Shown here piece by piece: positions 30,663 to 56,979 of a stretch of DNA of 61,855 bases. The stretch's first letter is position 1. Each line of letters starts with the position of its first letter. A model generated the notes under the pieces. The model saw only the letters and a program-made list of their open reading frames with translations. It was not told the origin of the DNA and searched no databases. Made by a program: the position numbers and the translations under genes. This DNA is from Wickerhamiella versatilis (Eukaryota), in contig JAQOWU010000001.1 of the NCBI GenBank assembly GCA_030867685.1, positions 1,054,001-1,115,855 of the forward strand, written 5' to 3'.

Positions 30663-33071
30663 ATGTCTCTTTTTGAGCCGGTGGGTCTAGGTGATGTCGA
30701 GCTAGGCCATAGAATTGTCTTGCCACCACTCACCCGATTGCGAGCCAACGAGAAAGGAGTTCCAAGTGGACTGGATGCGGAGTACTACAGGCAACGAGCC
30801 CAAGCAACCGGAACCTTGCTAATTGCAGGTGCCTTAATCAATGATGATGACGAGGCACATCCGTCGACACCAGGCATATACACTAGTGATCAGATAAAAG
30901 GCTGGAAGAAAGTCACTGCTGCTGTACATCAGCAGAAATCTTTAATATTTCTACAGCTATGGTCGATTGGTAGGTATTCGGCTGGTAAAAACTATGGAGG
31001 TAAAGGTGAGCCAGTAGGTGCCCCAATAGATGAGCTTTCCACAGCGGATATAAGTGATGTTGTCAAGGATCATGTGAAGGCAGCTAGGAATGCTATTGCT
31101 GCTGGATTTGATGGTGTCGAGATTCATGGAGCTCACGGCTGCTTGCTAAATCGATTCCTGTATGACGATAACAGTAGGAATGATAGATATGGTTGTTCAA
31201 TTGAAAACAAAGTGAGGATATTTTTTGACATCATAGACGCCGTATCAGATGCCATAGGGTCCCCAAAAGTCGGATTGCGCCTTTCTCCATTTGATAGCGA
31301 CTATGCCTATGGCCCTATCCCCATATTTTCTTACTTATTAGCAAGGTTGGAACAAAAGAAGAAGGAGGGAAGAGAAATTGCATATGTACATCTCGTAGAA
31401 CCTCGAAATCCAGGCGAGAATTCGGACTTTATCCGCCATATTTGGTCAGGCATACTTATTAGGGCTGGTGGCTTCACTCCAAAGACAGCAGCAGAGGCTG
31501 TGAAGGATGATCCTAAGCTACTGATAGCTTTTGGTAGGTATTTTATATCGAATCCTGACCTTGTAAGGCGCTTGCGGGATAACCTCCCTCTCACCAAATA
31601 CGATAGAAGTACGTTCTACAGTCAGGATGCAAAAGGCTATACCGATTATCCAACTTATGACGAACAGATAGAGCGGGAACGGTTACATCAACCCAAGAAA
31701 TCCCGCCTGCAGAAAAAGCTCATTCTAAATGCGTTTGCGATGACGACGCCAAACCATCTGTCACCCGGTTTATGGAGGCATCCAAGTAGTGACACCTCCA
31801 ATTATAACAAGGTTGAATACTGGGTGAACTTAGCGAAGTTGCTTGAACGGGGGAAATTACATGCACTTTTTATCGCTGATACGCTTGGACCCTATGATGT
31901 ATATGGAGGCCCAAGGAACATTAAGCCTGCTGTCACAACTGGCACTCAGTTTCCAGTTGGTGATCCTGCACTAGCTGTATCTGCAATGGCTGATGTGACC
32001 CAAAAACTTGCCTTTGACGTGACGACAAGCACAACTTATGAGCATCCCTACACTGTAGCTCGAAGGTTTTCGACCTTAGATCATTTGTCAAATGGACGGG
32101 TTATCTGGAATATAGTAACTTCTTACTTAGAAAGTGCAGCCCAAATGTATGGTCTGGAAACGCAGATTGATCATGATGAGAGGTATGGTAAAGGTGAAGA
32201 GTTCCTAGAAGTTTGCTATAAGCTCTGGGAATCCAGCTGGAAGGACGATGCTGTCCTTCGCGATAAAGCTCAAGGGATATTTGCTGATGTGAACAAAGTA
32301 CGACCTATTCATCATGAAGGGAAGTATTTCAAGGTTGATGGTGTGCATATCAATGAGCCATCTCCTCAGCGCACACCTCTACTTTTTCAAGCAGGAACCT
32401 CCAAGCGCGGAAGTGAATTTGGTACAAAGCATAGCGAGCTGATCTTTATATCCGGATTTAATTCTGCTCGTACAGGTCAAACGGTAGCGGGCCTTAGAAA
32501 ACAAGCTGAAGAGCAGGGGCGCCGTGCCGACCAAATCAAGATCGTGGTTAGCGTTGCTTTGATTTTAGGAGAAACAGATGAAGAGGCGCAGCAGAAGTAT
32601 AATGATTTCTTGTCTTATGCGGATGTTGAGGGTGCTCTCACCCTTTTTGGTGGATGGACAGGGAGTGATCTGGCGAAATTTCGTGACGATGATGACTTTC
32701 GTTTTGAAGGTCCGCCCGCCATTCAGTCAACTGTACTTAGTATTGACGATTCCAGACGGTGGACTAAAGCAGATATTGCCAAGGAATTGATTCTTGGCGG
32801 GTTTAGCCGCAAGATAGTCGGTAGCCCAACTACTGTGGCAGATGAGCTGGAGCGTTGGGCGACCGAATCGGATCTTGATGGGTTCAACCTTGCCCATATT
32901 ACATCTCCTGGGTCTTTTGAGGACATCGTCAACTTGCTTGTGCCGGAGCTCCAGCGGCGCGGCATATTTCACGATGACTATGACAGCGCTGAAACCGCAA
33001 GAGGCCAGGTTTTTGGCCATGACCATTTGCCAAGCGAACACCCAGGGTATCAGTACAAGTGGCTTGATTGA
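30663..33071 (+). CDS. Fusion: Old Yellow Enzyme barrel + NtaA/DszA/DmoA-type luciferase-like monooxygenase
   Basis: aa ~1-333: PLTRLRA, GFDGVEIHGAHG, AYVHLVEPR, FGRYFISNPDL, GYTDYP. aa ~350-802: LNAF..GLWRHP, LERG..HALFIAD, STLDHLS.GR..WNIVTS, PSPQRTP.LFQAGTS, PELQRRG. One uninterrupted ORF. Confidence 0.92.
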   Translation: MSLFEPVGLGDVELGHRIVLPPLTRLRANEKGVPSGLDAEYYRQRAQATGTLLIAGALINDDDEAHPSTPGIYTSDQIKGWKKVTAAVHQQKSLIFLQLWSIGRYSAGKNYGGKGEPVGAPIDELSTADISDVVKDHVKAARNAIAAGFDGVEIHGAHGCLLNRFLYDDNSRNDRYGCSIENKVRIFFDIIDAVSDAIGSPKVGLRLSPFDSDYAYGPIPIFSYLLARLEQKKKEGREIAYVHLVEPRNPGENSDFIRHIWSGILIRAGGFTPKTAAEAVKDDPKLLIAFGRYFISNPDLVRRLRDNLPLTKYDRSTFYSQDAKGYTDYPTYDEQIERERLHQPKKSRLQKKLILNAFAMTTPNHLSPGLWRHPSSDTSNYNKVEYWVNLAKLLERGKLHALFIADTLGPYDVYGGPRNIKPAVTTGTQFPVGDPALAVSAMADVTQKLAFDVTTSTTYEHPYTVARRFSTLDHLSNGRVIWNIVTSYLESAAQMYGLETQIDHDERYGKGEEFLEVCYKLWESSWKDDAVLRDKAQGIFADVNKVRPIHHEGKYFKVDGVHINEPSPQRTPLLFQAGTSKRGSEFGTKHSELIFISGFNSARTGQTVAGLRKQAEEQGRRADQIKIVVSVALILGETDEEAQQKYNDFLSYADVEGALTLFGGWTGSDLAKFRDDDDFRFEGPPAIQSTVLSIDDSRRWTKADIAKELILGGFSRKIVGSPTTVADELERWATESDLDGFNLAHITSPGSFEDIVNLLVPELQRRGIFHDDYDSAETARGQVFGHDHLPSEHPGYQYKWLD

Positions 33072-37607: not shown

Positions 37608-38693
37608 TCAGACACCCCTTTCCTCCAAGACACGGCGGACTCGTGGTATTATCTCCCGCCCGTAGTCGATCGCATCGTTAAGATTGTCATAGCCTCTAAT
37701 AGATATGAGGTCAGCACCAAGATCAACATAGTCAAGTATCGAGTCAGCGATAGTCTTTGGAGAACCAACTAGGGCAGTGGAGGCTCCACGGGCATTAGTT
37801 GCCTGGACAGTGGGGTACCAAAGTGCTCGGTCCTGGATCTCCCCCTTTGCAGCAATCTCGAGAAGGCGCTGCGACCCCACATTCTGCGGGGGAGGCGCAT
37901 TTGCGGGTGTTTTAACCAACTCGCCAGCTGCCCGGTTCTTCTTAAGTATCTCAAGCGTTCTATGAGCCTTTTCCCAGGCCAAGTCATCAGTTTCAGCAGT
38001 AATTGGGCGGAATGTAACCCAGATTCTTGGTTTGTCAGTTCTACCGGCCTTCTCTGCCTCCGCGTAGATACGATCAATTTGCTCCTTGGTCTCTTTGAGT
38101 GGTTCACCCCAAAGACCGAAAATATCTGCTAATGACCCCCCGATCCTGTATGCTTCTGGAGACGAGCCACCTACTGAGATTGGGATCTTGCCATTCACAG
38201 GTAGAACCCGATTGCTGAATTGCTTGAACTGATAGAACTTGCCGTCCCAGTCGAAAGGCTCCGATGACTTCCAAGCCCTCTTAAGGATCTTGATGTATTC
38301 CTCTAGACGAGCATACCGCTCTTCCTTGGTCAAGAAGTCGCCCTCCCTAGCCTGCTCGGCATCATTTCCACCAGCAATGAAATGCACGACTGCCCGGCCT
38401 TTGCTGAGCTGGTCTAGAGTAGCAAGTGCCTTAGCGGCCACTGTTGGATATAGGGTGTTGGGACGGAGTGCGACAATGACCTTTAGCTGTTTTGTCACGG
38501 AGGCGATTGTGGCTGCTGTGGTGAAAGGATCAAATCCACCAGAATCATATGGCTGCAGTGTGTAATTAAATCCGTAGTCATCTAAATTACGAGCGTAGCG
38601 GACCAGATAATCGGGGTCCACACCTGCTTTGGGCTGTGGATTGATCTCAGTAGACGCATTCGGAAACGCCAAGCTGATGAATTCAACCGGCAT
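37608..38693 (-). CDS. Luciferase-like (SsuD-like) FMNH2-dependent alkanesulfonate monooxygenase
   Basis: IVALRP, ATLDQLSKGR, EQAREGD..K.ERYAR..EY, VGGSS.EA, WGEPL, TALVGSP. Likely start MPVEF at 38693 (an upstream in-frame ATG lies at 38759). Confidence 0.92.
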   Translation of the reverse strand: MPVEFISLAFPNASTEINPQPKAGVDPDYLVRYARNLDDYGFNYTLQPYDSGGFDPFTTAATIASVTKQLKVIVALRPNTLYPTVAAKALATLDQLSKGRAVVHFIAGGNDAEQAREGDFLTKEERYARLEEYIKILKRAWKSSEPFDWDGKFYQFKQFSNRVLPVNGKIPISVGGSSPEAYRIGGSLADIFGLWGEPLKETKEQIDRIYAEAEKAGRTDKPRIWVTFRPITAETDDLAWEKAHRTLEILKKNRAAGELVKTPANAPPPQNVGSQRLLEIAAKGEIQDRALWYPTVQATNARGASTALVGSPKTIADSILDYVDLGADLISIRGYDNLNDAIDYGREIIPRVRRVLEERGV

Positions 38694-39389
38694 TGTAACT
38701 TTTCTCGTCTTTGCCCTATCTGTAGAATACTGTTTCTGTATATACTCGACCTTAGGCATTTTTAAATGTATCCCACTTTAGTCACAAAGGGATTGCGACA
38801 AAGGCTCAGTGATCACGCCATATCAGATATGTGATGACTAATACATTAAGCTACTGAAGACAACCAACAAGACAGCAAGCTTTACAATTGACGAGTCTTA
38901 ACTCTCCAGCTTTTGCCCCAGACTTATCTTGAATTTATGTGGTTGCATAGTACGTATATACATATACACTGGTCTATCCGGAATTATCTACACGATACTC
39001 AAACTAAGGTTCACGACTTGTTGCAATCCAAACATTTAAATAAAATACCAGCAAATATTTCGCGAATTAAAATGATTATACAGCTATAAGATGATGTTAA
39101 AGACTATGCTGGAGGCACAGTGCAGGAGATAAGACATATTCTCGCGTAATAGCAAATTCAATAGTTGAGGATAAGGAAATAGGTTGTCTAGAAAATCAGG
39201 TAGTAAAACAATATCAGAAATGAAATAAATTGCCGAAATTGTGTTCGTCTTGTCATTTTACAATTGCTTTCAGATATCTGAGAAAGATTCAACGATCTTA
39301 CTGATAATGAGGTTCGTGATGTCACGTGCCATGGGGCAAGACACAGTATTTAGCGTAGGCTCTGCCGATTTCTAACCTCAACCTCGAGA

Positions 39390-40577
39390 ATGGCACCAAT
39401 TTCCACACAGGCTGAAGCTATCCCAAGCGAAGTTGATGGGTCTAAGGCTTCACATGGTCCTATCACTGGTCTAGATATTCAAAGATTGTATCTGGAGGAT
39501 TCGCAGTCGAATTTACTGGATAATTACGAATTTAAGGATTTACTGCCAACCTTTCCTGATCTCAAATGGGAGCCACTCCCTGTTCATGAATACACGGATA
39601 GAGCGCTTAGTGCTGACCCCACGTTCCCCACACTATTCAAAAGTGTGACTCGGGTGGAGCATCTAACCCCTAAATTTGGTTCAGTTCTCCATGGAGCTGA
39701 TCTCTCGAAGCTTTCTGATTCGCAAAAGGATGAGCTCGCACTATTCACTGCTTACCGAGGGGTCGTGTTTTTTAAAGATCAGAGAAACCTTGATATCAAG
39801 AAGCAGTTAGAGTTGGGCCGATACTGGGGGAGATTGCATCGCCATGCTACAACTGGAATCCCCCGAGAGGCTGAAAATGATCCTAACTTGCTTGACGTCC
39901 ATGTGGTATATGCATCGGAAAAGCGCGCAACTAGCCTGGGAGGAGGGTCACCATGGCATTCGGATGTATCATACGAAAAACAGCCGCCGTCGTATACTAC
40001 GCTCAAACTACTTCATGGTCCACCAACTGGCGGTGATACTGCTTGGGGTAGTGCTTATGGTCTATATGACAGCCTGTCCCCCCGTTTCCAACGCTACCTT
40101 GAGGGTCTCACAGCACTCCATTCGGCTGTTGAACAGGCAGATGGTGCACGCAGACTTGGTAAGACTATACGAAGGGAGCCTGTCATTACTGAGCACCCAA
40201 TTGTTCGAACACATCCTGTGACTGGTTATAAAGGGGTGTATGTTAATCCTGGATTCACTCGTCGTATAGTCGGGGTGCCAGGAGCCGAATCTGACTTTGT
40301 GCTCAAATATCTGTTTAAGCTGATCGAGGAAAATGTGACACATACCGCGCGCTGGCACTGGGACCCGCAGGATGTTGCTCTGTGGGATAATCGGTCAACT
40401 GTGCATGCAGCCTCCTACGGTTTTTACCCACATCGCAGGCATGCAGTAAGGGTAACTACCCATGGCGAAGTTCCATACTTTGATGGAGGTAAGTCAGAAC
40501 AAGAAACGATTGATGCAACTCTCGGGCTTCATAGTTTCGAGAAAGATTGTGCCAAACCTCCTGCATTCGCAGACTAG
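39390..40577 (+). CDS. TauD/TfdA-family 2-oxoglutarate-dependent sulfonate dioxygenase
   Basis: RGVVFF.DQ, WHSD, GGDT, HPIVRTHPVTG, WDNR.T.H, R..VRV. Confidence 0.95.
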   Translation: MAPISTQAEAIPSEVDGSKASHGPITGLDIQRLYLEDSQSNLLDNYEFKDLLPTFPDLKWEPLPVHEYTDRALSADPTFPTLFKSVTRVEHLTPKFGSVLHGADLSKLSDSQKDELALFTAYRGVVFFKDQRNLDIKKQLELGRYWGRLHRHATTGIPREAENDPNLLDVHVVYASEKRATSLGGGSPWHSDVSYEKQPPSYTTLKLLHGPPTGGDTAWGSAYGLYDSLSPRFQRYLEGLTALHSAVEQADGARRLGKTIRREPVITEHPIVRTHPVTGYKGVYVNPGFTRRIVGVPGAESDFVLKYLFKLIEENVTHTARWHWDPQDVALWDNRSTVHAASYGFYPHRRHAVRVTTHGEVPYFDGGKSEQETIDATLGLHSFEKDCAKPPAFAD

Positions 40578-40829
40578 TATCAACTGGTAGAACTTAAAAT
40601 ATATTTATGTCCTCGCACACATTGCTATATAGCTTTTGAAATGCAAGTCATACTGCTGTCCCCTATATATATAGCTTTCTGAAGCCTTCGAGTTTAAGGT
40701 TTATGACATAACATAGCATAGCATCTGGAGACATGGAGCAAAAGTCATGAATCGTTATCGTCATATAACGTGACCACAGGTGATCGCCGCAAAAGGGTTA
40801 TCAGGTAATTTTCAGGGTCATCTGAAACC

Positions 40830-42518
40830 ATGGGATTCAAAGAAATTTTGAAGCGTGGTGAATCCATATTCTCGTCTTCGGACTCTACAGAGAAGAAGGA
40901 GGATGCTAATGTGGAAGTTAGCTCGGATGTGGCTGAGGAGTATGAAGAGAATAACCATCAAACAATAAATGTATTCCAACATCCTGAGACTGCTAAATAC
41001 TATATGAGTCTTTATGAAAATGCCAATTACGAGTGCCGTCATCTCGTGGACCCAGACTTCCGCTGGACAAAAGAGGAGGAGCGGAAGCTGGTGCGAAAAA
41101 CCGACTGGTATGTCACATTCTGGGCATTCATCATGTTCTGTGGTTTGAACCTTGATAGATATAATTTGACTTTTCTTACTGCTACGAATATGCTTGATGA
41201 CATTGGAATCTCCACCAACGATTACAATACAGGTAATGTAGTCAACCTTGTATGTTTCCTTGGGTGCGAGCTTCCTTCGCAGCTGATTTCGAAGTGGCTG
41301 GGGCCCGACCGCTGGATTCCTGCCCAACTCACACTTTGGAGTGTTGTTTCGATCTCACAATGCAAAATGCACTCACGAGGCGCTTTTTTGGCCACCCGTG
41401 CGCTCATAGGTGGACTCGAAGGAGGTTTCATACCAGATGTCAGTCTATGGATGTCATACTTTTACACTAACAAAGAGCTAACGGTACGGTTTGCATGGTT
41501 TTATATCAGTAACCCGTTCACTCAGGCGATAACCGGGCTATTATCGGCAGCAATCTTCCCCATAGAAAACAGACCCGGTGTAAAGCATCTTGGGATGTAT
41601 AACTGGCAATGGACGTTCCTTATTGAAGGACTGATTACTCTTGTAATTGGGCTTTGTTCGTTTTTTAAAATGCCGGCATCCGTTGCGCAAACAAGAAAAT
41701 GGTTCCGCCGTGAGGGCTGGTTCACAGAGAGGGAAGAAAAAATCATGGTAAATCGAGTCATCCGAGATGATCCTTCTAAAGGTACAATGAACAACCGCCA
41801 GGCTATCAGTCCCAAAATGTTATGGCATTCTCTTACTGACTATGACCTGTGGCCATTATATTTCATTCGTGTCTTGATAGACATCATTTCCACTCCCCTA
41901 TCAAAGTATTCTTCCATTATTTTGAAACAGCAGGGATTCTCAGCTGCGATCAATAATCTTCTTCAAGTGCCATGGTCCTGTTTATCCATTATTACGCTGG
42001 TAAGCGCTAGCCATGGAGCGCAATATTTCAAAAAGTTTGGATGGTTTCTTGTCCTTTCACCTCTTTGGCTTATGCCATGTATAGTTGCCATGAGGTGGTG
42101 GCCTGATTACGCCGAGAAAGGCTATACTTGGCAAAGTTACATTATACTTTTCTTCGCGCTGGGCTACCCTCCGTCATGGGCTATTTCAATCTCTTGGACA
42201 TCAGAAAACTCAAATAGTGTCCGTACTCGATCGGTTTCTGCAGCGTTGGTTAACATGTTCTCCCAAGCAGGATCTATCATTGGTTCCGAGCTGTTCCGCA
42301 AAGACGATCAACCGAAATTTCATCGCGGCCTGGAACAAGACTTTGGTATTTCTATTGGGGCTATTGCCGCCGTAATACTAGGAGTTTTCTATTATATCCT
42401 GAAAAACAAATGGCGTGATCGTAAGTGGGCCAGTATGTCAGAAGAGGAACAACTTGATTACACGCTGCATACCAAAGATATTGGTAACAAGAGGTTGGAT
42501 TTTCGCTTTTCTTACTGA
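40830..42518 (+). CDS. SOA1: Allantoate-permease-family MFS transporter, Soa1-like (sulfonate/inorganic sulfur)
   Basis: ELPSQLISK.LGPDRWIP.Q, EGGFIPD, RDDPSKG.MNNRQ, C-terminal RLDFRF. Confidence 0.85.
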   Translation: MGFKEILKRGESIFSSSDSTEKKEDANVEVSSDVAEEYEENNHQTINVFQHPETAKYYMSLYENANYECRHLVDPDFRWTKEEERKLVRKTDWYVTFWAFIMFCGLNLDRYNLTFLTATNMLDDIGISTNDYNTGNVVNLVCFLGCELPSQLISKWLGPDRWIPAQLTLWSVVSISQCKMHSRGAFLATRALIGGLEGGFIPDVSLWMSYFYTNKELTVRFAWFYISNPFTQAITGLLSAAIFPIENRPGVKHLGMYNWQWTFLIEGLITLVIGLCSFFKMPASVAQTRKWFRREGWFTEREEKIMVNRVIRDDPSKGTMNNRQAISPKMLWHSLTDYDLWPLYFIRVLIDIISTPLSKYSSIILKQQGFSAAINNLLQVPWSCLSIITLVSASHGAQYFKKFGWFLVLSPLWLMPCIVAMRWWPDYAEKGYTWQSYIILFFALGYPPSWAISISWTSENSNSVRTRSVSAALVNMFSQAGSIIGSELFRKDDQPKFHRGLEQDFGISIGAIAAVILGVFYYILKNKWRDRKWASMSEEEQLDYTLHTKDIGNKRLDFRFSY

Positions 42519-42829
42519 TATTTCTTGTCTTATCTTCGAATTAATAGCATTTTTACAATTAAGAATCGTGGTTTCGCTTCACACACAAATTATGTAAATT
42601 ATCATCATAGATCAATCCAATGCGGTTTGATGAAAAAGTGATATAGAAAATTTGCGCTTCAATAACTTTGGCTGGCTGTAGAACGCAATATAGGCTAACT
42701 ACATGGCATTTAGCAGCATTCTGCAACAGACATCCAATTCACAATGGTCACGTGAATTGTAGTGATATTCTCATTACTTTGAAAAATTCTTTCGTCTCTG
42801 GTTTCCTTCTTGAGCTCAAAGAGAGGTTG

Positions 42830-44311
42830 ATGGCAATACTCCCACTGAAAAAGTTTGGGATAGAAGACAAAAAATTAAATGATAGGAAGACAGAGTCAAG
42901 CGAGACAGAGTCAAATGAGACAGACAGCCAAACGAAGTGGTATCATTCAACATTTTTTAACGCCACAATTCTAGGACTTTGTGACTTCACAGCTCCTGGT
43001 CTATGGAACGCTATGAGCTCTCTCGGTGCTAGTGGCATGGAAAAGCCCTATCTTGTCAATGCTTCGAGTGCGCTCACTTTTGGACTTATGTTCGTCGTAT
43101 CATTCTTTGGTTCTGCTGTGGTGCAGAGAGTTGGCTTAAGACAAGCTCTTGCGATTGGATGTGTGGGATATGCCCCCTATTCTGCCGCGTTGTACTGTAA
43201 TAATAGATTCGGTACTGAGTGGTATGTGATTTTCGGAGCAGCGTTGTGCGGGTTAAGTGCAGGGATATTCTGGACCGCTGAAGCAGCTATAGCTTTGAGT
43301 TATCCAGAGGTTAATCGTAAGGGTAAAATTTTGGCGTATTGGATGTGTTTCAATGTTGGTGGTGAACTTGTTGGCGGCTCAGTTAATTTGGGTCTTGACG
43401 CCAATAGGAATACCAAGGGCTCTGTATCCTCCAAAGTTTATTTGGTATTCATTGCGTTGCAGTGTCTTGGGCCGTTTATTGCCTTTTTACTCTCCCCGCC
43501 AGAAAAAGTTCAGCGCGTTGATGGCAAAAGGGTGAGACTTTACACTGACAATTCCGTCCTTAAAGAACTGCGAGAAACCGCTAGGTTCTTCATTAGAAAA
43601 GAATTTCTACTAATCTTACCCTTTGTTCTACAGAAAATGTTTCCAGGTCCATTCTTCAGCACTTATGAGACCCAGTTTTTCAGCGTACGGGCACGGGCCT
43701 TGGCATCCTTCCTTGGTTCTGTCGTATCTATGTTCTCCGGTCTACTTCTTGGCTTCTTATTCGACCGTAAATCGGTATCCAACAAGAATAAGGCTCGTAT
43801 TGGGTTTTGTATTATTGAAATATTGCAAGGAGGTATATTCATCTGGTCTACTATTAACACATTCTACTTCGAAAAGGAGGACAGGAACTACAACGTATTT
43901 GACTGGAGCGATCCCGGGTTTGGCAAGGCATTCGGTGTTCTTATGTTTTCTGACATTGCAACACAGCTAACAAGTCTTTATTTATATTACCTCATTGGTA
44001 ATTTGGCTAATAACCCTCAGGAAATCATAAGGCTTTCTGCAATTATGAGAGGATCAGAATCGGCATCTGAAGCAGTGAGCTATGGTCTTAATGCGGTTAA
44101 TGACCTGATAACTATCCCAAATAATGCTATAAACTTTGGTTTATGGGCAATTTCTCTGATAACTCCTGCGATCTTCGCTTGGAGAATTGGTATTCCTGGC
44201 GGTATAGGGGCAATACATGGCACGCTGAAGACTGACGAATCTGATAGTGACAGTGATGAGTTTATAGAAAATAGGGAAAAGGAGCCCACTACCACAGTTC
44301 AGCCGGCATAG
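42830..44311 (+). CDS. UNC-93-like MFS membrane protein
   Basis: PGLWNAMSSLGA.G, GYAPYSAALY, CGLSAGIFW.AEAAI..SYPE, FSVRARAL. ATG at 42830. Confidence 0.85.
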   Translation: MAILPLKKFGIEDKKLNDRKTESSETESNETDSQTKWYHSTFFNATILGLCDFTAPGLWNAMSSLGASGMEKPYLVNASSALTFGLMFVVSFFGSAVVQRVGLRQALAIGCVGYAPYSAALYCNNRFGTEWYVIFGAALCGLSAGIFWTAEAAIALSYPEVNRKGKILAYWMCFNVGGELVGGSVNLGLDANRNTKGSVSSKVYLVFIALQCLGPFIAFLLSPPEKVQRVDGKRVRLYTDNSVLKELRETARFFIRKEFLLILPFVLQKMFPGPFFSTYETQFFSVRARALASFLGSVVSMFSGLLLGFLFDRKSVSNKNKARIGFCIIEILQGGIFIWSTINTFYFEKEDRNYNVFDWSDPGFGKAFGVLMFSDIATQLTSLYLYYLIGNLANNPQEIIRLSAIMRGSESASEAVSYGLNAVNDLITIPNNAINFGLWAISLITPAIFAWRIGIPGGIGAIHGTLKTDESDSDSDEFIENREKEPTTTVQPA

Positions 44312-44806
44312 TATATTGAAGCAACAGCAATTTTAGTTGCAATTAACAATGCCACTCCAAATATTGACTCATGTAGTGTACACTAGCATACCCATTAAGG
44401 TGATGCGTCTGTCAAGATAAGATAAATAAGTAGACGGTTAATAGACCAGAAAAGACGCAGATACTTTCGTATTTGCTGGAAGTTCATATTTATAGTGTAT
44501 CCTAAAGTAATTTATCCACCAAACATAATTCTATGCTTCTATGATCTTGCCATCCTTGTAGTGCATTTACTTCTGTAGATAAGAATCTATGTTGATTATT
44601 AATCGGAGTCCTTGGTTTTCTGTGGGGAAATACGAGGCATCACGCAATAGTGTAGTACAAACCCTTATATCCGTAATTCGAGAACTCTTCATTTCCGGAA
44701 GTAAAGGAAAAACTCTGGAGAGTACTAGATAGAGTTAAGGCTAAAGTTTAGGTCTCGTTCTCAGTGGTGACATATTGGCGAATTGCCTCCAAACAACTCA
44801 ACCGAT

Positions 44807-46120
44807 ATGGCACCTCCAGCAGCTCTCAAGGCAGAGCCAGAACCTACACTACAATCCATTGACTCCAATGCGATTGGCAAGCTAACCTTGAATAGTAGCT
44901 CACCTTCCTATAGAGAGGGGACAAATTCACTCACTATACCCAAGCCGTCACCAAATAATGTGAACGCGGTGAAACATCTTCCAAAGCAAACCAGATCTAG
45001 ATTCCAGCGGCATGGGGTGGACCTTTCAAAAGGTTACCCTGAGTATCCTGAGAACCCTCCGTTTTACTTGGATGAAGGATATGCGATTCGCGGCGAGCCG
45101 TGGACACACATCGAGCGCGGGAAAAATGCAGACCCTGATAAGAAAGCTCTTTTTGACGCGGCTAAGGAGGTAAAACATCTTACTAAATACATCGGAACCG
45201 AGATTGTAGGCCTTCAGATCTCTGAACTTACTGATCAGCAGAGAGATGAATTAGCCCGGCTTATCGCTGAAAGAGTTGTAGTTTTCTTCCGCGACCAGGA
45301 CTTGTCACCCCAGAAACAACTCGAATTAGGCCACTACTACGGTAAAGTTGAGATCCATCCGAAGGTTCCTCACGTACCTGGACTTAATGGAACAACCGTT
45401 ATTTGGCCCAAACTAGCGAATCTCTCAGCGAAGAACAAATTCAGCTTCAAACATCCGGCAGGTACGTCATACTGGCATACCGATCTGGTGCACGAAATCC
45501 AGCCAGCTGGGATCACACACCTCCACAATGATACAATTCCTTCCGTAGGTGGTGACACCGTGTGGGCATCGGGATATGCGGCATATGATAAGTTGTCCAG
45601 ACCTTTCCAGAAATTTCTCGACGGTAAGAAAGCTGTCTACCGGTCCGCACACACATACTTGGACCGCAATGATCCTTTGTCAGGACCTAAATACATTGAA
45701 CGTGAGCACTATCTAGTACGGACCCATCCTGTTACTGCTTGGAAGTCTCTGTTTGTGAACCGGAGCATGACTGTGAGAATTGTCGGTCTCGAGCCAAAAG
45801 AATCAGCTACAATTCTGGAGCTACTCTACGAGGTTTACGAGGGTAATCCAGATATTCAAGTACGGTTTAGTTGGCAACCCACAGTTGAAGGTCTTGGTAC
45901 TTCCGCGTTATGGGACAATCGTATATCCCAGCATTTTGCCGTATGGGACTACGCAAACGAATCTTCTGCAGATGGCATAGAAGATGAAAGTATCGCCCGT
46001 CATGGTACACGTGTTACCTCTCTCGCAGATAAGACTTTTTTGATCCGAATTCGAAATCTCAGAGGGATAGCCTTGGCCTATCGAATCCTTGAACTGGTCC
46101 CATTCATATCTATCTTTTAG
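44807..46120 (+). CDS. JLP1: Jlp1-type sulfonate/2OG dioxygenase; C-terminal tail apparently frameshifted at a T6 run (46036-46041)
   Basis: DLSKGYP, AERVVVFFRDQDLSPQKQL, WHTDLVHE.QPAGITHLHND, WDNRISQH, RHGTRVT. One extra T would give the family-like tail FFDPNSKSQRDSLGLSNP* ending at 46092. Confidence 0.9.
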   Translation: MAPPAALKAEPEPTLQSIDSNAIGKLTLNSSSPSYREGTNSLTIPKPSPNNVNAVKHLPKQTRSRFQRHGVDLSKGYPEYPENPPFYLDEGYAIRGEPWTHIERGKNADPDKKALFDAAKEVKHLTKYIGTEIVGLQISELTDQQRDELARLIAERVVVFFRDQDLSPQKQLELGHYYGKVEIHPKVPHVPGLNGTTVIWPKLANLSAKNKFSFKHPAGTSYWHTDLVHEIQPAGITHLHNDTIPSVGGDTVWASGYAAYDKLSRPFQKFLDGKKAVYRSAHTYLDRNDPLSGPKYIEREHYLVRTHPVTAWKSLFVNRSMTVRIVGLEPKESATILELLYEVYEGNPDIQVRFSWQPTVEGLGTSALWDNRISQHFAVWDYANESSADGIEDESIARHGTRVTSLADKTFLIRIRNLRGIALAYRILELVPFISIF

Positions 46121-48666: not shown

Positions 48667-51072
48667 TTATCGGTTCTCGTATTGTTTCTTTTTGAAAGAC
48701 ACCGAATCAAAGAGTATCTGCGTCCATTCTCTTGGCCAATCGCGTAAGAGTTCATCATCTATTGCCTCTGGACGATTAAGGTAATCGCTTGCAATGAGAT
48801 TTAGGTTTTCAAGGAACAAAGTCCTATCACTCAACGATAGCAGTGAGTGAGCATTTCTTTGACCACCAGGCCGACTAAGTCTCTCTGCTTCCCAATGCTC
48901 CATCAGCTCGCGATTCGGAAGTTTAGCCAATTTATTGAATACGAGTGCAGCCACAAAGGCTTGCTTTTCCCAGGCCGTGAAAGAGGGAGTACCAGTAGGT
49001 GGCCCAACAAAGGCAATATGATTGGAGTATATGTCGAACGTATGCTCGAAAATACCTGGTATATAATGAGCACCACCAGGAGATGAATAGGGTACCTTTT
49101 TGTGAGATTCTGGGTGGCGCCGATCCAAGTTCTGGAGAAACGGGAAGTGAAAGCGGTAGCCCGTTGCCAATATAATAGCATCAACAGTTTCTCCAGCATC
49201 AGTGTCCGAAAAATAAACGGAATTCCCAGCTACTTTTACCAAACTGCTTCGAAGTTCGACTCCTTTGCTCTCCACAGATCGTCCATAGGGGTGTTCCGAC
49301 CTTTGAGCAAGGAAAATCTTTGAAGCCGCAGTTCTGAGCTGATCCTTGATATCTAGACCACTTTCCCGTGTACCTACAACAAGAACCTTCTTATTTCGAA
49401 ATGGCGTGGGACCACGATAATCCGCGGAGTGAATCAGTTTTCCTGGAAACTTATCTAACCCTGGCACATCGGGTACTCGAGGCTCCCAGTTGTGGCCTAC
49501 CGCAACAATCAAGAAATCATAGTCCTTTTCCTCCCAGAGATTCTCGGATTCATTCACTTTTTGGCAGGTTATGATTCTGAATTTGGGATGATCCTCAGAC
49601 CCATGATTTTTTACATCCTCCACGGATGTGTTAAAATGAATATACTTTTCATATGGTTTTATTGAATTATCAACACGCTCCGCAACTTCCTCGCCAGAAA
49701 TAAAAAAAGGGCTTTCTTTTTGCAAGTCTTGTTTGAAGGCAGTAAAGCCAAACATAATCTGCTGGGGTACATTTGTCACAAGACCTGGATAAACAGGTGA
49801 TTCACTGTATTTCTCCCTAGAATTGCTGGGTAGTTTTGAAGGAAAGGGTCCATTTGGTATCTGCAAAGACTTTTTCGGTTGCCTTAAGTCTTCAGAATCT
49901 GAGAAATCTTTTTCATTTCTTTTTGCCCATATCCCCCCAGGTTTATCTCGCCGCTCAAAAATATCAATTTGATGATGAGGAAACTTAAGAAATGCTCTGG
50001 CTGAGGATATTCCAGATGGACCTGAGCCAATTATGGCTACACGTTTGGGCTCAAGTTCATAAGATGGCGACGGGAGCTGAGAGCCGAATGATATATAGTT
50101 CGGAGCTCCATGCGCTTGTCCATACGGAAGCTTTTTAAATGGCTCTGTCGGCTTACCTTGCTCCAAAAGTTGCCTCAAACTGGGATTGCTGATAAAATGA
50201 TCCGAAAAACTTACTGCTTGCGCAGTATTTAATGCCTCCCCGATCAAAGAGGGATCTGGCAAAGACCATATTACTGGGAACCGTTTTGAAGGAAGTTTTG
50301 TTCCAAATGGTAGTCTCAAATATGCAATCTTGATACCTAGAGAACTTAGATCAACTTCTCGGTCCAGGTAAACACCCACCCTACCCGGAAAGATGCCCGA
50401 TAAGGCTGAAATTGTCTCTTTCAGGAGTCGTAGTGGGTCAGCATACTTATCACTACGCAAATTGCTCTGAGGATCCAGAAATTGACCTATGAGGGAATTA
50501 CCCCCAGCATTCACCTCTACTCCATCGGCACCTGAAAGTTTTGCATTTTGTGAGCTGATGGCAAAGCTGTCGATGATTCGCGCTATCTCCTCTGCAGTAA
50601 GCTCTCGAGGAATACTCGATTTATCACACCATTCGTCATTGAGCTCTACCACTGGCGTAGTGGTAGATGGACCTACGGTCTCAGTGTCCTCAAAAGATGA
50701 GGGAGTGAGTTTATCGTAGTAATAGACCTGGTTGCGCAACAGAACACCTTTAGTAGTGCTTCGCCCAGGATGAAATAACTGAATATAGAACTTGCCACCT
50801 GATTGGTGAATTAGGTCAACTATCGCCTTCCACGCTGCTACCTGTTCCAAACTTGCAATGAGAGGAGCGAATAACGATGTGCCAGCACTATATCCAACCC
50901 CCACAGGTTCTGAAATGGTGAGCGACTTACCTTGAGACCTTTCAATGTAAAACTTTCTGGCTAATTGAGATGGTATTCCCCAAGGAGCACGTCGATTATC
51001 AGAAGATGCGTGAACAACGCGATTATCGACTACTTGGCCACCAATTTCAATTTCTGAGAACACAGCGGCCAT
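48667..51072 (-). CDS. Fusion: degenerate Old Yellow Enzyme barrel + class B flavin-containing monooxygenase (FMO)
   Basis: N-term NRVV.A, WK.IVD.IH..G.KFYIQLFHPGR, PRELT.EEI, GADGVEVN, QFL...SN.R.DKY, FISNP. C-term AIIGSGPSG, FPGKLIHSADYR (FxGxxxHxxxY), VVGTRESGLD, ATGY. Confidence 0.88.
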   Translation of the reverse strand: MAAVFSEIEIGGQVVDNRVVHASSDNRRAPWGIPSQLARKFYIERSQGKSLTISEPVGVGYSAGTSLFAPLIASLEQVAAWKAIVDLIHQSGGKFYIQLFHPGRSTTKGVLLRNQVYYYDKLTPSSFEDTETVGPSTTTPVVELNDEWCDKSSIPRELTAEEIARIIDSFAISSQNAKLSGADGVEVNAGGNSLIGQFLDPQSNLRSDKYADPLRLLKETISALSGIFPGRVGVYLDREVDLSSLGIKIAYLRLPFGTKLPSKRFPVIWSLPDPSLIGEALNTAQAVSFSDHFISNPSLRQLLEQGKPTEPFKKLPYGQAHGAPNYISFGSQLPSPSYELEPKRVAIIGSGPSGISSARAFLKFPHHQIDIFERRDKPGGIWAKRNEKDFSDSEDLRQPKKSLQIPNGPFPSKLPSNSREKYSESPVYPGLVTNVPQQIMFGFTAFKQDLQKESPFFISGEEVAERVDNSIKPYEKYIHFNTSVEDVKNHGSEDHPKFRIITCQKVNESENLWEEKDYDFLIVAVGHNWEPRVPDVPGLDKFPGKLIHSADYRGPTPFRNKKVLVVGTRESGLDIKDQLRTAASKIFLAQRSEHPYGRSVESKGVELRSSLVKVAGNSVYFSDTDAGETVDAIILATGYRFHFPFLQNLDRRHPESHKKVPYSSPGGAHYIPGIFEHTFDIYSNHIAFVGPPTGTPSFTAWEKQAFVAALVFNKLAKLPNRELMEHWEAERLSRPGGQRNAHSLLSLSDRTLFLENLNLIASDYLNRPEAIDDELLRDWPREWTQILFDSVSFKKKQYENR

Positions 51073-51598
51073 AACCTTACTTTATAGTGAGTAAAAACGC
51101 AAATATTAATCTCTAGTCTGCTTATTCGCCTAATCTCTATCGATGGTGCAACAACATGTGATTTGACATGCGTGATGACTTACCATGGTCTATCTATGTG
51201 ATAGCACTTACGAACGGAGAAATGGTCAAGCAATTAGGTCTGAAATAATTACTAGCAACCCGATGAGTTGAGTGGTTACCCTCTCAATATTAAGTTTTTT
51301 CTTCTTTATCACCCTGCCGTGAAAACCTTCTAGTCCATCTGAGCAGACATGCCAGTATTACTGGTGTTTGGTAAGTGCAATGCGGTATCATTTGATGGTT
51401 TAAATGCTATTTAAATGGCGTGAGTTCTAATCAGTAAGATAAGCCGCATTCTCGTGCAGGAAGTAGTTATCATTATGTCTACTTCACTACCTTAGGCTGC
51501 CTGGGCGATGCACGGTAGCTTTTGTCGTGGTGGGTTACCAATGAATGTATTTCGGGCAATATTTTATATCTATACAAAGTACAGGTCTATTCCGCAGT

Positions 51599-52156
51599 CT
51601 AGTGCTTGAGCTGCATGAGCCGAGTGTTGGCATTGGTCAGCGCATTAACCTTGTTATCACTAACATGGTAGTCCTTGGATGCCATGTCATTCAGCTTGCC
51701 AATGGCTTCTGAGAGATCCTTGACCCCGCCGTCGGTTATCATGTCAATAGCACCACCACCGATGTTACCGATCAGAACTTCGACACCATTGGTCACCGAC
51801 TGGAAGAAGTCGCCGAGAAGGAAGTTGCCAATGTCCTTGTTGATACCGAGGGAAGCATATGTCAACAGCTTGGAGTCCGTGAGCATACCCAGAACATTGT
51901 CAATCTGGGAATCAGTCCCAGTAATCAAGGCGTTGAGGGAGCTGGCAACTGCATGGCCGTCTCCAGATTTGATTTGTCCTGCCAGAGTATCAACGACTTG
52001 CTTCGAGTTTGTTATCGCATTGTGGAGGCCAGCCATGTTAGGGTTGGAGTTGGAATCATAGTCGCTCTGGTCGAAGCAATCCTCAACAGTGTTGTCGAAG
52101 TTTGAAGGGGCAGCAAGGACGGCAGAGACAAGTAGGGAAAGAGTGGTAAATTGCAT
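51599..52156 (-). CDS. Small secreted protein of unknown function
   Basis: Signal peptide MQFTTLSLLVSAVLA-AP, 185 aa, visibly C/G-ending codon bias. Confidence 0.8.
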   Translation of the reverse strand: MQFTTLSLLVSAVLAAPSNFDNTVEDCFDQSDYDSNSNPNMAGLHNAITNSKQVVDTLAGQIKSGDGHAVASSLNALITGTDSQIDNVLGMLTDSKLLTYASLGINKDIGNFLLGDFFQSVTNGVEVLIGNIGGGAIDMITDGGVKDLSEAIGKLNDMASKDYHVSDNKVNALTNANTRLMQLKH

Positions 52157-53800: not shown

Positions 53801-55085
53801 CTAATCGCGATTCCAAGAAGATCCTGCTTTTTCCTTTTCCTTTGCTGCATTCGCCAGGTCCTCTGTGCGGAGCTTCGAATTTGGATCCAAAAATGGTCGC
53901 TCACCTAGAGAAAGTGCACGTATACCTACGCGGGGTAGAATATCGCGGTTGGGAAGTCTGAGGTCGTGAATTATCGTGTGATAAGTTGATCTATTGTCCC
54001 AAATTGCGATATCATATTTGTTCCACTTGTAACGCAGTTGAATCTCAGGGCTGCTCTTCAACAAGTCGCTCAAATACCTTTTGACATAGTCGTTTTCTTG
54101 ACCACTGACTTCGTTGATCTTAGTGAAATGGTGTCCGATTCCGAATATAGACTTCCAGCCGGTAACTGGATTGGTACCAACTATTGGATGAGTAGCTGTT
54201 AGCTCGGTGCCTACGTTTTCCGGTGCACCTCGCTCTTCAGACCAGAAAGGAACCTTCTGTTTCGCTGAGACATTAGCAAATTGCGGCTGAGAGTACTCTC
54301 CTGTAAGCTTTTCCAAGTATGAAAGAAACTCGGGACTGACTTTTTCAGCCAATCCATAGCCAGATGCCCAGATTGTATCGCCGCCACTGCCCCCCTACAC
54401 TACCTGAATGGACTTGGGAAAGTTCACTTTCATCAGCCGAGCTGCTAGGGGTCTTTGTAAGCCTCAAACCAGCATAACTAGCTGGCACAGGCTCAAAAGT
54501 GATATCACTGTGGAATCCTCCCGCGGGATCCCACCCAGATGAACGACTGATGCCTTTGAATTATTCCGCAAGCAGTTCAGAGTCAAGCACATGGACTTCT
54601 GGAATCGCTTTCCCGTTGTGGGGATCAATTGCAGAATTAGTAAATGATGTGGGGTGAATGTGGAGACCTGAAGAAGATGGTTTATTTGCGGCTCGACCCA
54701 GAGCGTCCACCAGGCGTTTCTGCTGGTCAACGGATAGATCATACTGATTCTTGAAAAAGACCACACCTCTTTCGCTAACCGTTATAGCTAGATCACGCAA
54801 GAGCTCTTCATCCTGTAGTATGTCTGTTAGCCTGGCTTCTTCGTAGAATTTTCGGCCCAGACCTGGCGTCACTTCAGTAAACTTGTACTTTCCACTTAGT
54901 TTTCCCGAGTGTTTCAGAGGCTTGTAATTTTTGAGAACCGATGGGCCTTCTTTAGGCGTATGCGCCCAAGGAGATGGTCCTACCAGCTTAGATTTGGGGT
55001 TGTTCCTGAATGGGGTAGGATCTTCTTGATAACTAACAAATTTAAGCGAGTCTAAAGGAGAATCAACCGAGAGAGCCGGTGCCAT
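53801..55085 (-). pseudogene. Third TauD-family dioxygenase, interrupted
   Basis: RDLAITVSERGVVFF, an in-frame TAA at 54561-54563, FHSDITFEPVP, a +1 shift in a G6 run (54390-54395), then GGDTIWASGY, HPIV.TNPVTGWK, WDNRSTYH. Confidence 0.88.
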
Positions 55086-55272: not shown

Positions 55273-56979
55273 CTATGTAGTAAATCTGAAATCTAATCTC
55301 GCCGTGTCTTCCTTCTCAGAGCGATCCAAATAGTCCATTTGCTGCTTATGCGTCATTCCGCTCCACTGTTTCTCTTTCTGGGAGTTTCGCATGTAATAAT
55401 ATAAGTACGAAAGAGCGATGGTGAAGAAACTCGCTATTGTTATCGCGATTAGTTGGGTAAGACCACGTCGATAGTAAGGTGAATCATCGGCACGGAACAT
55501 CTGCGATGCAATGATGCCCGCCAACTGAGAAAAAACATTGGTTACAGCTCCAGATACTGTACGCATACCAACTCCTGCTGAATTGTGCGAGGCCCAGGTC
55601 ACATTAAGTGCTTCCACACGAGGAGCACCAAGGGCTAGAAGAAGGAGAGCATAGGATCCCCAATGGTCTTTGAGAAATCCAGGCCACCATCGCATTGCAG
55701 CAAAACACGGAAGCATCCATAGAGGAACAATGACCATGGGTATCCAGTAGGATTTCAGAGCTCTACGTCCGTAAATCTGAGCCAGAAGTGTGATTATCTG
55801 GAGAAAGTTTTGTGGAATCATGAGAAGACTTGTGTTCACTGATGAGAAGCCCATCCTCCTCAGAAGAACAGGCATATAATTGGTTAATGGTCGGTTTTGT
55901 AAATCACCGAATATTCTTACAATATATATCGGCCACAAATCATAATTTAGGATGCAGCGAACAATTTGTTTCAACCCCATGGGTGCTCGATTATTCATTG
56001 TGCCTTTTGCTGGTTCATCTCTTAATACATGATTGATAATGACCTTCTCTTCATGAGGAGAATACCATCCATGTGGCCTATACCACGCTCGGGTCTGAGA
56101 TGGTGAAGGAGACATCAGAAAGAATGCGAGCACGCCGATTAACAAAGAAAATAGTCCTTCAATCAGAAATACATACTGCCATCCATGCCAGCCATTGGAT
56201 CCCTCAAGATTAGAGTAGATGCCGTATGAAATAAGGGAGCTGAATGCTTGCGTCAGGGGATTAGCCGTGTATAGCCAGCCGACCCGAGTAGCGAGCTCAG
56301 GTCCGGTGTAGAAATAGCTCATCCATAATATCATATCACTTTTGTTAGCATCGAATTGAAATATTTTCCCTCTTTTGAATACTTACGGAATAAATCCTCC
56401 TTCCATCGCACCTATTAAGCATCGAGTTACCAAGAAGCCCGCCCGTGACTTTATCCGACATTGAACAATGGCGACGATTGACCAGAGGCACATTTGCGTA
56501 GGAATCCAAATATCGGGTCCGATCCATTTTGAGATCAAATTTGAAGGAAGCTCCATTCCTAAGAAGCACACGAGATTAACGGTGTTTCCCAGGTTGTAAT
56601 CGTCAGTCGATAATTTCAAATCGGAGAGGAAATTATCTGAAACAGCATTTTGAAGATTGAACCTATCGATATTCAGAGCAAATAACATGATGAATGCGAA
56701 AAGACATACATGAAGATCAGTTTTCCTAAGCGTAATTTTCCGGACTTCTGCTTTCGTGTAATAGAAGACAGGATCAAATAAATGCCTATTTTCGTATCCT
56801 GATTCTTCGTAAAGCCTTTTCCAGTATTTTGCTACTTCTTTATCACTGAATGGGTTTTTCAAGCCACCGTCGCACTCAGGCTCTTTGTGCAAATTCTCGC
56901 ATGTAACAGCGTTTTCAGAATTCCTGCTGAGACTATGGGAGCCAATCTCTTGGACTTCCACTTGTGGTTCTTCTTTCAT
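55273..56979 (-). CDS. Second Soa1-like MFS sulfonate transporter, two exons: 56979-56387 and 56338-55273
   Basis: Splicing joins the two ORF-track entries as EGGFIP-DMILWMSYFY, colinear with EGGFIPDVSLWMSYFY in the paralog at 40830. Ends RLDFRFTT. Confidence 0.9.
56339..56386 (-). other. 48-nt spliceosomal intron
   Basis: GTAAGT donor and TGCTAAC branch point followed by AAAAG acceptor. It contains an in-frame stop and its removal restores the protein. Confidence 0.9.

Follow-up and report, generated by a model that had tools for sequence, protein, structure and literature searches.

A sulfur-poor fusion of an eroded Old Yellow Enzyme-type barrel with a flavin-containing monooxygenase in a gene cluster of Wickerhamiella versatilis

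Flavin-containing monooxygenases (FMOs), Old Yellow Enzymes (OYEs) and pseudoenzyme domains are already known as kinds. In OYE1 the FMN cofactor is contacted by Pro35, Thr37, Gly72, Gln114, Arg243, Gly345, Gly347 and Arg348, as given in the available part of PMC4002455, and the fungal 'Class III' OYEs keep His191, Asn194 and Tyr196 according to the available sections of PMC3915301, in which neither a monooxygenase nor a fusion is mentioned (0 occurrences). The family of OYE-FMO fusions is undescribed: such proteins sit in public databases, and literature searches turned up no description of an OYE-FMO fusion. The present work deals with a gene of this type (48667..51072, minus strand) found in a 61,855-nucleotide stretch of Wickerhamiella versatilis DNA (GenBank assembly GCA_030867685.1, contig JAQOWU010000001.1, forward-strand positions 1,054,001 to 1,115,855), hereafter called the window, to which all coordinates refer.

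The enzymes of fungal thioether, sulfoxide and sulfone assimilation are largely unknown. The fungal route is outlined as sulfide to sulfoxide to sulfone to sulfonate in the Linder review (PMC5857272), whose available portion assigns the sulfide-to-sulfone steps of sulfur assimilation to no enzyme and places Exophiala spinifera among the fungi reported to desulfurize dibenzothiophene. Genes of the luciferase-like monooxygenase (LLM, PF00296) and TauD (PF02668) families are strongly induced under sulfur starvation in Candida parapsilosis (PMC11502921, from the accessible text), while in C. albicans FMO-named genes are induced, one of which is predicted to have dimethylaniline monooxygenase activity and has its promoter bound by Met32 (PMC13170222, likewise from the accessible text).

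The fusion protein and its family

The gene consists of a single intact open reading frame (ORF) with an ATG start, 801 codons followed by a stop and no internal stop, CTG being read the standard way in all ORF translations, and its product is one two-domain protein: an OYE-type barrel, a linker and an FMO. Pfam placed Oxidored_FMN (PF00724) on residues 4–210 (profile positions 2–194 of 342, E 4.4e-27, 95.7 bits against a cut-off of 27) and FMO-like (PF00743) in the same ORF (E 1.9e-31, 109.5 bits against a cut-off of 22), and, judged by these scores, both matches are far beyond chance. The OYE-derived (beta/alpha)8 barrel takes up residues 1–335 (50068..51072; Pfam, PDB sequence search, AlphaFold and Foldseek) and the class B flavin-containing monooxygenase domain residues 343–801 (459 residues, 48670..50046; Pfam, PDB sequence searches and Foldseek), while the OYE C-terminal tail and interdomain linker (residues 305–342, 50047..50160) were modeled by AlphaFold with a pLDDT of about 58–67; these and all other parts of the gene given below are on the minus strand. 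The model of the whole protein, computed from an alignment of 46 rows, had a mean pLDDT of 85.1 and a pTM of 0.86, with most of the barrel at pLDDT 85–98. Prediction of the barrel (1–335) and the FMO domain (343–801) as a complex gave scores of 0.37, 0.31 and 0.32, around the mark of 0.34 (controls 0.00–0.01), and was not used either way.

A homology search in which 7995 candidates were scored produced 11 matches, just three of which were full-length relatives (93, 66 and 46% identity; 801, 802 and 830 aa). The window protein (P0001) and these three (P0002–P0004) form the yeast-type set (n = 4). No stop separates the two halves in any of the four, so that two separate proteins are not indicated at the ORF level, and the single-ORF fusion of an OYE-type barrel with an FMO, as proposed by the first-pass annotation of the locus, was borne out. 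Two short proteins, P0013 (162 aa) and P0014 (163 aa), were 77–90% identical to the first 119–149 residues of the barrel and then diverged; these are probably copies in related assemblies that are fragmentary or carry a frameshift.

With only the barrel as query, a search of the full library (5398 matches at E ≤0.001) revealed a 912-aa Chaetothyriales protein, P0084, with both Oxidored_FMN and FMO-like, to which the window protein is collinear across both halves (residues 4–798, 29% identity, E 1e-96, BLASTP). Using P0084 as a query, 47 matches were obtained at E ≤1e-20, and PF00724 and PF00743 were present together in 15 of them, all named Pezizomycotina proteins (six from Fusarium, three each from Exophiala and Verticillium, and one each from Chaetothyriales sp., Penicillium and Aspergillus) annotated as hypothetical, NADH:flavin oxidoreductase or thiol-specific monooxygenase. 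Against the Pezizomycotina fusions, the FMO half of P0001 scored 225–288 bits, versus 130 bits against the best stand-alone FMO compared. A profile search with a five-sequence alignment recovered 11 proteins at E ≤1e-10, comprising 10 from the homology search above and the new P0161; it added no family members and missed P0084. By this homology the window protein is a divergent member of an ascomycete OYE-FMO fusion family.

Low sulfur content is a further property of the family. Of the 801 residues of the window protein, 2 are Cys and 3 are Met (0.62%), against 2–6% Cys+Met in the window ORFs outside the cluster, in agreement with its earlier description as sulfur-spared. All 19 fusions had 0.41–1.28% Cys+Met (median 0.66%), 17 of them less than 0.9%, while the median of 179 other proteins compared was 2.74% and their 5th percentile 1.08%. 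Proteins of sulfur assimilation are typically poor in sulfur themselves, a pattern reportedly documented by Baudouin-Cornu in 2001 and Fauchon in 2002.

Monooxygenase half and barrel compared

In PDB sequence searches, residues 343–801 matched ZvPNO 5nmw (1.8e-29), the bacterial FMO 8b2d (2.3e-29) and the Schizosaccharomyces pombe FMO 2gv8 (3.3e-27; domain residues 8–416). Foldseek gave 5nmx (TMt 0.79), 1vqw (TMt 0.81) and, among the ten best, the garlic S-allyl-L-cysteine S-oxygenase 6wpu (TMt 0.74), with the trimethylamine monooxygenase Tmm soaked with DMS (7d4m) further down. The FAD-binding GxGxxG motif is present as GSGPSG (residues 349–354, 50011..50028), whose G349, G351 and G354 were invariant in 5/5 sequences of the five-sequence alignment, and FPGKLIHSADY (residues 542–552, 49417..49449) corresponds to FxGxxxHxxxY/F, the FMO-identifying motif. 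The second dinucleotide (NADPH) motif has the variant form GTRESGLD (residues 567–574, 49351..49374), which aligned by HMMER with GSSYSAED of 8b2d, a structure deposited in complex with NADP+, and with GGASSAND of 2gv8, and the departure from the textbook GxGxxG is therefore normal for the FMO class. Together with the conserved FMO motif ATGY (residues 636–639, 49156..49167) and Asn434, these motifs were invariant in all four yeast-type sequences. The FMO half keeps every checked FAD, NADPH and FMO signature motif, and is expected to need nothing beyond FAD, NADPH and O2 as helpers in catalysis, which supports the earlier view that it needs no reductase.

The barrel is of the OYE type. The PDB sequence search with it gave 129 distinct chains at E ≤0.001; all of the 60 matches listed belonged to the OYE family, the best solved one among them being morphinone reductase 2r14 (E 1.6e-24). 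Foldseek against the PDB matched the model barrel to OPR3 8qnm, NemA 3gka and 7tmb and XenB 4ab4 at TMt 0.74 (OYE range 0.71–0.74), so that the OYE fold of the N-terminal region was upheld. Protein Atlas returned OYE clusters only (scores 0.91–0.93), and no resemblance to any non-OYE family was found by Pfam, PDB sequence search or Protein Atlas. The blocks GADGVE, QFLDP and FISNP are common to the window barrel and classical OYEs, and AlphaFold predicted all eight barrel strands (residues 19–22, 51–58, 94–100, 184–188, 232–235, 252–255, 267–270 and 286–289). The best matches of the eroded barrel outside its orthologs were the tandem-OYE proteins P0015 (E 3e-40) and P0016 (E 3e-32), which, like P0017, P0018, P0021, P0183, P0185–P0187 and P0189, are eukaryote-type proteins with complete OYE barrels repeated two or three times in tandem.

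The second half of the barrel is trimmed. The match to 2r14 was split in two (residues 4–242 and 282–320), with about 75 residues of the enzyme represented by about 40 here. When an OYE profile was built from 31 ordinary OYEs (366 positions), the barrel matched positions 2–229 (residues 1–245) and 313–346 (residues 277–332), and the approximately 83 positions in between were covered by about 31 residues (246–276, 50245..50337); the model is without helices between strands 5, 6 and 7, alpha5 and alpha6 being lost. About 50 residues of the second half are gone, and the shortened C-terminal half noticed in the first-pass annotation was thereby borne out by the profile coverage.

For the cofactor and catalytic sites, the aligned columns of the 4 yeast-type sequences were compared with those of 8 Pezizomycotina fusions and 22 ordinary OYEs. 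Ordinary OYEs had P35 in 21/22, T37 in 19/22, A/G72 in 19/22, Q114 in 22/22, R243 in 19/22, G347 in 19/22 and R348 in 9/22, while the window barrel had S, D, P, Q, Y, S and D at these seven positions, and the yeast-type sequences S, D, P, Y/H, S and D/T at P35, T37, G72, R243, G347 and R348. Six of the eight FMN-contact positions were thus changed in the window barrel to residues absent or rare in the 22 ordinary OYEs; Gln114 was the only contact retained (3/4 yeast-type sequences), and the Ser at the Gly345 position also occurred in 7/22 ordinary OYEs. The replacements lie in HASSDN (residues 21–26, 50995..51012), which stands for the FMN-contact motif (M)APLTR (Pro35 to Ser, Thr37 to Asp), in PGRVGVY (residues 229–235, 50368..50388), where Tyr235 occupies the position of Arg243 in the RLSP motif of ordinary OYEs, and in VSFSDH (residues 287–292, 50197..50214), which was identified by PDB sequence search and alignment and replaces the phosphate-binding xxFGRx (Gly347 to Ser, Arg348 to Asp). 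EVNAGGNS (residues 186–193, 50494..50517) stands in place of E-I/V-H-x-A-N-G-Y, and with it all three catalytic positions were changed (His191 to Asn188, Asn194 to Gly191, Tyr196 to Ser193; H in 20/22, N in 19/22 and Y in 20/22 ordinary OYEs), while the beta7 'GGY' loop became 'SLP'. HASSDN and EVNAGGNS, both quoted earlier, were found at their verified coordinates, and the strong erosion claimed for the barrel was confirmed by the six changed FMN contacts and the three changed catalytic positions. Because most FMN contacts, the catalytic set and the GGY loop are replaced, canonical FMN binding and ene-reductase chemistry by this barrel are very unlikely, and a flavin-binding role, which had been suggested for it, is unlikely given substitutions such as Thr37 to Asp, Arg243 to Tyr and Gly347-Arg348 to Ser-Asp. 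The Cys149-Asp150 pair (50623..50628) lies in a stretch of the barrel where Cys149 (50623-50625) falls into a low-confidence loop (block 141–150, mean pLDDT 64); this is the sole Cys invariant in the four yeast-type sequences, and in the Pezizomycotina fusions the position is Gly.

The barrels of the Pezizomycotina fusions are full length (OYE profile positions 3–365; proteins of 860–966 aa) and kept Gln114, Arg243 and Gly347-Arg348 in 8/8 sequences, with Gly at Thr37 and Leu/Asn/Phe at positions 191/194/196. An identity of the fusion barrels with the fungal 'Class III' OYEs was ruled out, the latter keeping His/Asn/Tyr in the available text of PMC3915301 where the Pezizomycotina barrels have Leu/Asn/Phe.

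The two halves also differ in rate. In the four yeast-type sequences 100/335 columns of the barrel and 226/459 of the FMO were invariant; the identity between P0001 and P0003 was 57% for the barrel and 73% for the FMO, falling to 38–41% and 54–55%, respectively, at the deepest split (pairs with P0004). Within the Pezizomycotina fusions this order was reversed (barrel 66–70%, FMO 56–62% identity), and the rate therefore shifted toward a faster barrel in the yeast-type lineage. Judged from these alignments, the yeast-type barrel has sped up without decaying to noise and is in frame in 4/4 sequences; in the window protein its residues 1–335 hold 1 Cys and the start Met.

The sulfur-poor cluster and the neighboring fusion

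The window is fungal, with Zn2Cys6 regulators and an alternative oxidase present. A second OYE fusion lies 15.6 kb from the OYE-FMO gene, at 30663..33071 on the plus strand, and consists of a full OYE (Pfam 6e-75, profile positions 1–341) and an NtaA/DmoA(DszA)-type LLM, the latter recognized by TIGR03860 with 488.8 bits against a cut-off of 279.7. A role as built-in flavin reductase is plausible for its OYE. A TCACGTG copy is located at 30584, 79 nt upstream of this gene.

The claim that the OYE-FMO fusion had arisen independently of the OYE-LLM fusion was only partly sustained. The two window barrels were 21% identical (79/369 aligned columns, E 2e-12), and the FMO half clearly goes with the Pezizomycotina fusions. 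Alignment-wide identity of the P0001 barrel was 26.9% to Pezizomycotina barrels, 28.6% to others and 24.2% to the OYE-LLM barrel, and at such values percent identity does not discriminate the origin of the barrel. In a maximum-likelihood tree of 60 barrels the yeast-type clade (SH-aLRT 100), which has a long stem (1.43), and the Pezizomycotina fusion clade (99) were on the same side of a branch with support 87, while the OYE-LLM barrel was placed elsewhere, beside a tandem-OYE protein (93); two derived columns (His21 and Gly58, absent from 45 other barrels) were shared with the Pezizomycotina barrels and none with the OYE-LLM barrel. In the AU test, however, a tree joining the yeast-type barrels with the OYE-LLM barrel was not rejected (delta lnL 8.5, p 0.313). 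Independent origin of the two fusions is likely, albeit the barrel tree alone is no proof of it; the stronger argument comes from whole-protein homology with a family having a different oxygenase partner. What did not hold was the idea of a locally recurrent design: the same N-to-C architecture, collinear over both halves, occurs in the 15 named Pezizomycotina proteins, outside this cluster, which therefore holds two pre-existing fusion types.

Between the two fusions lie an SsuD-like LLM (37608-38759, minus strand; alkanesulfonate monooxygenase model, 2e-54, besides Pfam), a TauD gene (39390-40577, plus strand), two MFS transporters (40830-42518 and 42668-44311, both plus strand) and another TauD gene (44783-46120, plus strand), the latter four assigned by Pfam. 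The neighborhood as a whole has three TauD genes, intact or broken, along with several MFS transporters and one SSF transporter. The soluble enzymes within 37608..46120 had 0.46–0.52% Cys+Met, those of the cluster 0.46–0.87%, and the OYE-LLM fusion 0.87%.

The hexamer CACGTG was enriched window-wide, with 18 sites versus 7.9 expected, a number reached in 0/100 shuffles. The sites include 30584, 33500, 33520, 39322, 42748, 48022, 48041, 52976 and 55162, and the TCACGTG copies, concentrated in promoters of cluster genes, would fit a Cbf1-type element. CTGTGGC and AACTGTGG, presumably Met31/32-type cores, had 7 and 4 matches in the window, all inside ORFs and none intergenic.

Several other ORFs of the window deserve mention. 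Directly upstream of the OYE-FMO gene, 51599-52156 (minus strand) encodes a 185-aa product that begins with a hydrophobic stretch (MQFTTLSLLVSAVLAAPS...), has no Pfam match and may be a small secreted protein. The adjacent ORFs 53801-54352 and 54561-55085 (both minus strand), S-free or S-poor, matched TauD profile positions 137–251 and 3–87, respectively, and represent either a broken TauD gene or a TauD with an intron. The ORF 55273-56334 (minus strand) covers only positions 113–346 of 347 in the MFS_1 profile and looks truncated. At the edge of the sulfur cluster an arylsulfotransferase (57164-58285, plus strand; ASST, PF05935, 2.8e-21) is followed by a Zn2Cys6 regulator (58441-60306, plus strand). 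Finally, a 331-aa ORF at 13334-14329 (minus strand) has bacterial-type LysR architecture (HTH_1 1.3e-13 and LysR_substrate 1e-19) in this otherwise fungal window, and is possibly a horizontally acquired gene; in bacteria, LysR regulators control sulfur-starvation genes.

Possible role and comparison with known systems

On balance, we consider it somewhat probable that the OYE-FMO protein is a sulfur-starvation S-oxygenase feeding the DszA-, SsuD- and TauD-type neighbors, with a flavin-free accessory barrel kept for folding, assembly or substrate access. The chemistry would be performed by the FMO domain alone, using FAD, NADPH and O2 for the S-oxygenation of an imported organosulfur compound, for example from thioether to sulfoxide and sulfone, or from thiol or sulfinate to sulfonate; the products would then be passed to the DszA-type OYE-LLM fusion, the SsuD-like LLM and the TauD dioxygenases, releasing sulfite in sulfur starvation. 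We infer this upstream position from the sulfur-poor family, the cluster content, the starvation induction in Candida and the fungal sulfide route. The barrel, without FMN and under weaker but real constraint, would be a non-redox accessory domain for FMO folding, assembly or substrate access, its redox job having possibly become redundant once an intact OYE was present on the neighboring LLM fusion.

Several points speak against such an accessory, flavin-free barrel on an S-oxygenase. The redundancy is a scenario only, and no substrate, flavin-content or expression data were found for any family member. CACGTG, present in several cluster promoters, was absent from the gene's own 5' region (51073-51598). 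The loss of Arg348 weighs little, because this residue is Arg in just 9/22 ordinary OYEs, and the retained Gln114 and the eight predicted strands are compatible with non-canonical flavin binding. The residues now at the old FMN sites (S23, D25, P56, S288 and S290) are conserved in 4/4 yeast-type sequences and could mean a new pocket, not mere support.

These observations bear on several other explanations. A barrel with a new non-flavin function, either as an organosulfur ligand-binding or gating site or as a thiol-based catalytic site around Cys149, seems unlikely to us. It would account for the five conserved replacements and for Cys149, the only invariant Cys in an 801-residue protein with 2 Cys and absent from the Pezizomycotina fusions, and it would suit the statement, in the available portion of the Linder review (PMC5857272), that the desulfinase DszB is without a fungal homologue; but invariance at the 11 old functional sites (5/11) was not clearly above the domain average (100/335), the Cys149 loop is modeled with low confidence, and the barrel resembles no family but OYE. 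We rate as rather unlikely a non-canonical binding of FMN or another flavin, by which the barrel would act as an internal NAD(P)H:flavin reductase or electron relay serving either the FMO or the FMNH2-dependent LLMs of the cluster. The OYE fold with its eight strands is retained, Gln114 is kept in 3/4 sequences, two FMNH2-dependent LLMs in the cluster need a reductase, and the contacts kept in the Pezizomycotina relatives (8/8 for Gln114, Arg243 and Gly347-Arg348) mean that the ancestral barrel probably bound FMN. However, Asp at the Thr37 and Arg348 positions and Tyr/His at Arg243 are among the six altered contacts, the barrel no longer has the beta7 GGY loop or helices alpha5 and alpha6, it evolves faster than the FMO half, opposite to the Pezizomycotina, and an intact OYE already exists on the DszA-type LLM 15.6 kb away.

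The losses of catalytic and cofactor residues, the trimming and an evolution faster than that of the FMO half would also be expected of a functionless relic heading for loss, with only the FMO of importance. This we think improbable, since the barrel is in frame without a stop in 4/4 yeast-type sequences, still 38–41% identical where the FMO is 54–55%, invariant in 100/335 columns, still sulfur-poor (1 Cys and the start Met in 335 residues) and placed confidently in the model (pLDDT mostly 85–98, pTM 0.86). Equally improbable is an FMO outside sulfur scavenging, such as an N-oxygenase or a general xenobiotic or thiol-redox FMO merely adjoining the cluster: the closest solved FMOs do include N-oxygenases (ZvPNO 5nmw and trimethylamine monooxygenases) and CACGTG is missing from the 5' region of the gene, but the depletion of Cys and Met is family-wide (19/19 fusions at ≤1.28%, 17/19 below 0.9%), the gene is embedded among S-poor TauD and LLM genes and transporters, and the fold matches include the S-allyl-L-cysteine S-oxygenase 6wpu (TMt 0.74, among the ten best) and the DMS-soaked Tmm 7d4m. 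With as little expectation we mention a more speculative possibility, in which the fusions were originally two-flavin enzymes for sulfur starvation: the ancestral FMN barrel with its Leu/Asn/Phe site beside the FAD/NADPH oxygenase would have supplied reduced flavin to LLMs or handled an S-oxygenated product, and the yeast-type barrel would have been rebuilt as a flavin-free pocket (Ser23, Asp25, Asn188, Tyr235 and Cys149) for an organosulfur intermediate, for instance at the sulfinate step. We know of no fungal enzyme for such a sulfinate-handling step.

Under the favored reading, that of an S-oxygenase with an accessory barrel, the OYE-FMO family is a concrete and testable candidate for the sulfide-to-sulfone step, being sulfur-poor and clustered with DszA-, SsuD- and TauD-type enzymes. 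Exophiala spinifera, a reported dibenzothiophene desulfurizer according to the accessible part of the review (PMC5857272), also carries such a fusion. The family offers a natural series from a cofactor domain to a pseudoenzyme domain inside a fusion, running from the full FMN-type barrel of the Pezizomycotina to the eroded, trimmed and conserved barrel of the yeast type, while the non-canonical Leu/Asn/Phe site of the Pezizomycotina members is relevant to OYE biocatalysis.

Compared with class B FMOs (2gv8/1vqw, 2xve, 8b2d, 5nmw and 6wpu), the FMO half is similar in fold and sequence (TMt 0.74–0.81, E 1e-27 to 1e-29) and has all the motifs, while the solved enzymes are single-domain proteins of about 410–460 aa without an N-terminal barrel and only 21–24% identical to it. 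The barrel is likewise related to the classical OYEs (2r14/1gwj, NemA 3gka/8bpp, PETN reductase, OPR1/3 and OYE1 1oya; PF00724, E 1e-24 to 3e-18, TMt 0.71–0.74), but, in contrast to them, it has lost the FMN contacts and the His/Asn/Tyr set, is trimmed in its second half and is fused to an FMO. Enzymes of the FadH/2-naphthoyl-CoA reductase/TMADH type (1ps9, 6qkg) have the same fold order, a barrel followed by dinucleotide-binding domains, and were the top Foldseek matches by E-value (8e-30) and weak sequence matches (P0006–P0012). An identity with this type was rejected: the whole-length TM was 0.32–0.42 with an rmsd of 13–15 Å, and the C-terminal half has an FMO signature. The Cys-ligated 4Fe-4S cluster of these enzymes cannot form in the window protein, because its barrel and linker hold a single Cys.

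The OYE-LLM fusion of the same cluster resembles the OYE-FMO protein in the N-terminal OYE-type barrel joined to an oxygenase, the size of about 800 aa and the low sulfur content; its barrel, however, is complete with PPLTR, EIHGAHGC, LRLSP and FGR and its partner is an FMNH2-dependent LLM needing a reductase, whereas the barrel of the FMO fusion is eroded. DszC of the bacterial dibenzothiophene (4S) pathway, which belongs to a different fold family, of the acyl-CoA dehydrogenase type, is FMNH2-dependent, and no sequence relation between it and the window FMO was seen. The proposed role would nevertheless be the same, conversion of sulfide to sulfoxide and sulfone upstream of a DszA-type sulfone monooxygenase, as suggested by the cluster content and the available portion of PMC5857272. 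The closest counterparts are the Pezizomycotina fusions, such as Exophiala spinifera PV08_06585 (P0162), Chaetothyriales sp. DV735_g5639 (P0084) and the Fusarium tjaetaba 'thiol-specific monooxygenase' (P0170), which have the same domain order, are collinear with the window protein, are 32–37% identical to it in the FMO half and have His21, Gly58 and the depletion of Cys and Met in common with it. They differ in the FMO signature, which is WxGxLxHxxxW instead of FPGKLIHSADY, and in keeping the FMN contacts and the full barrel, while the window protein has lost Arg243, Gly347-Arg348 and about 50 residues.

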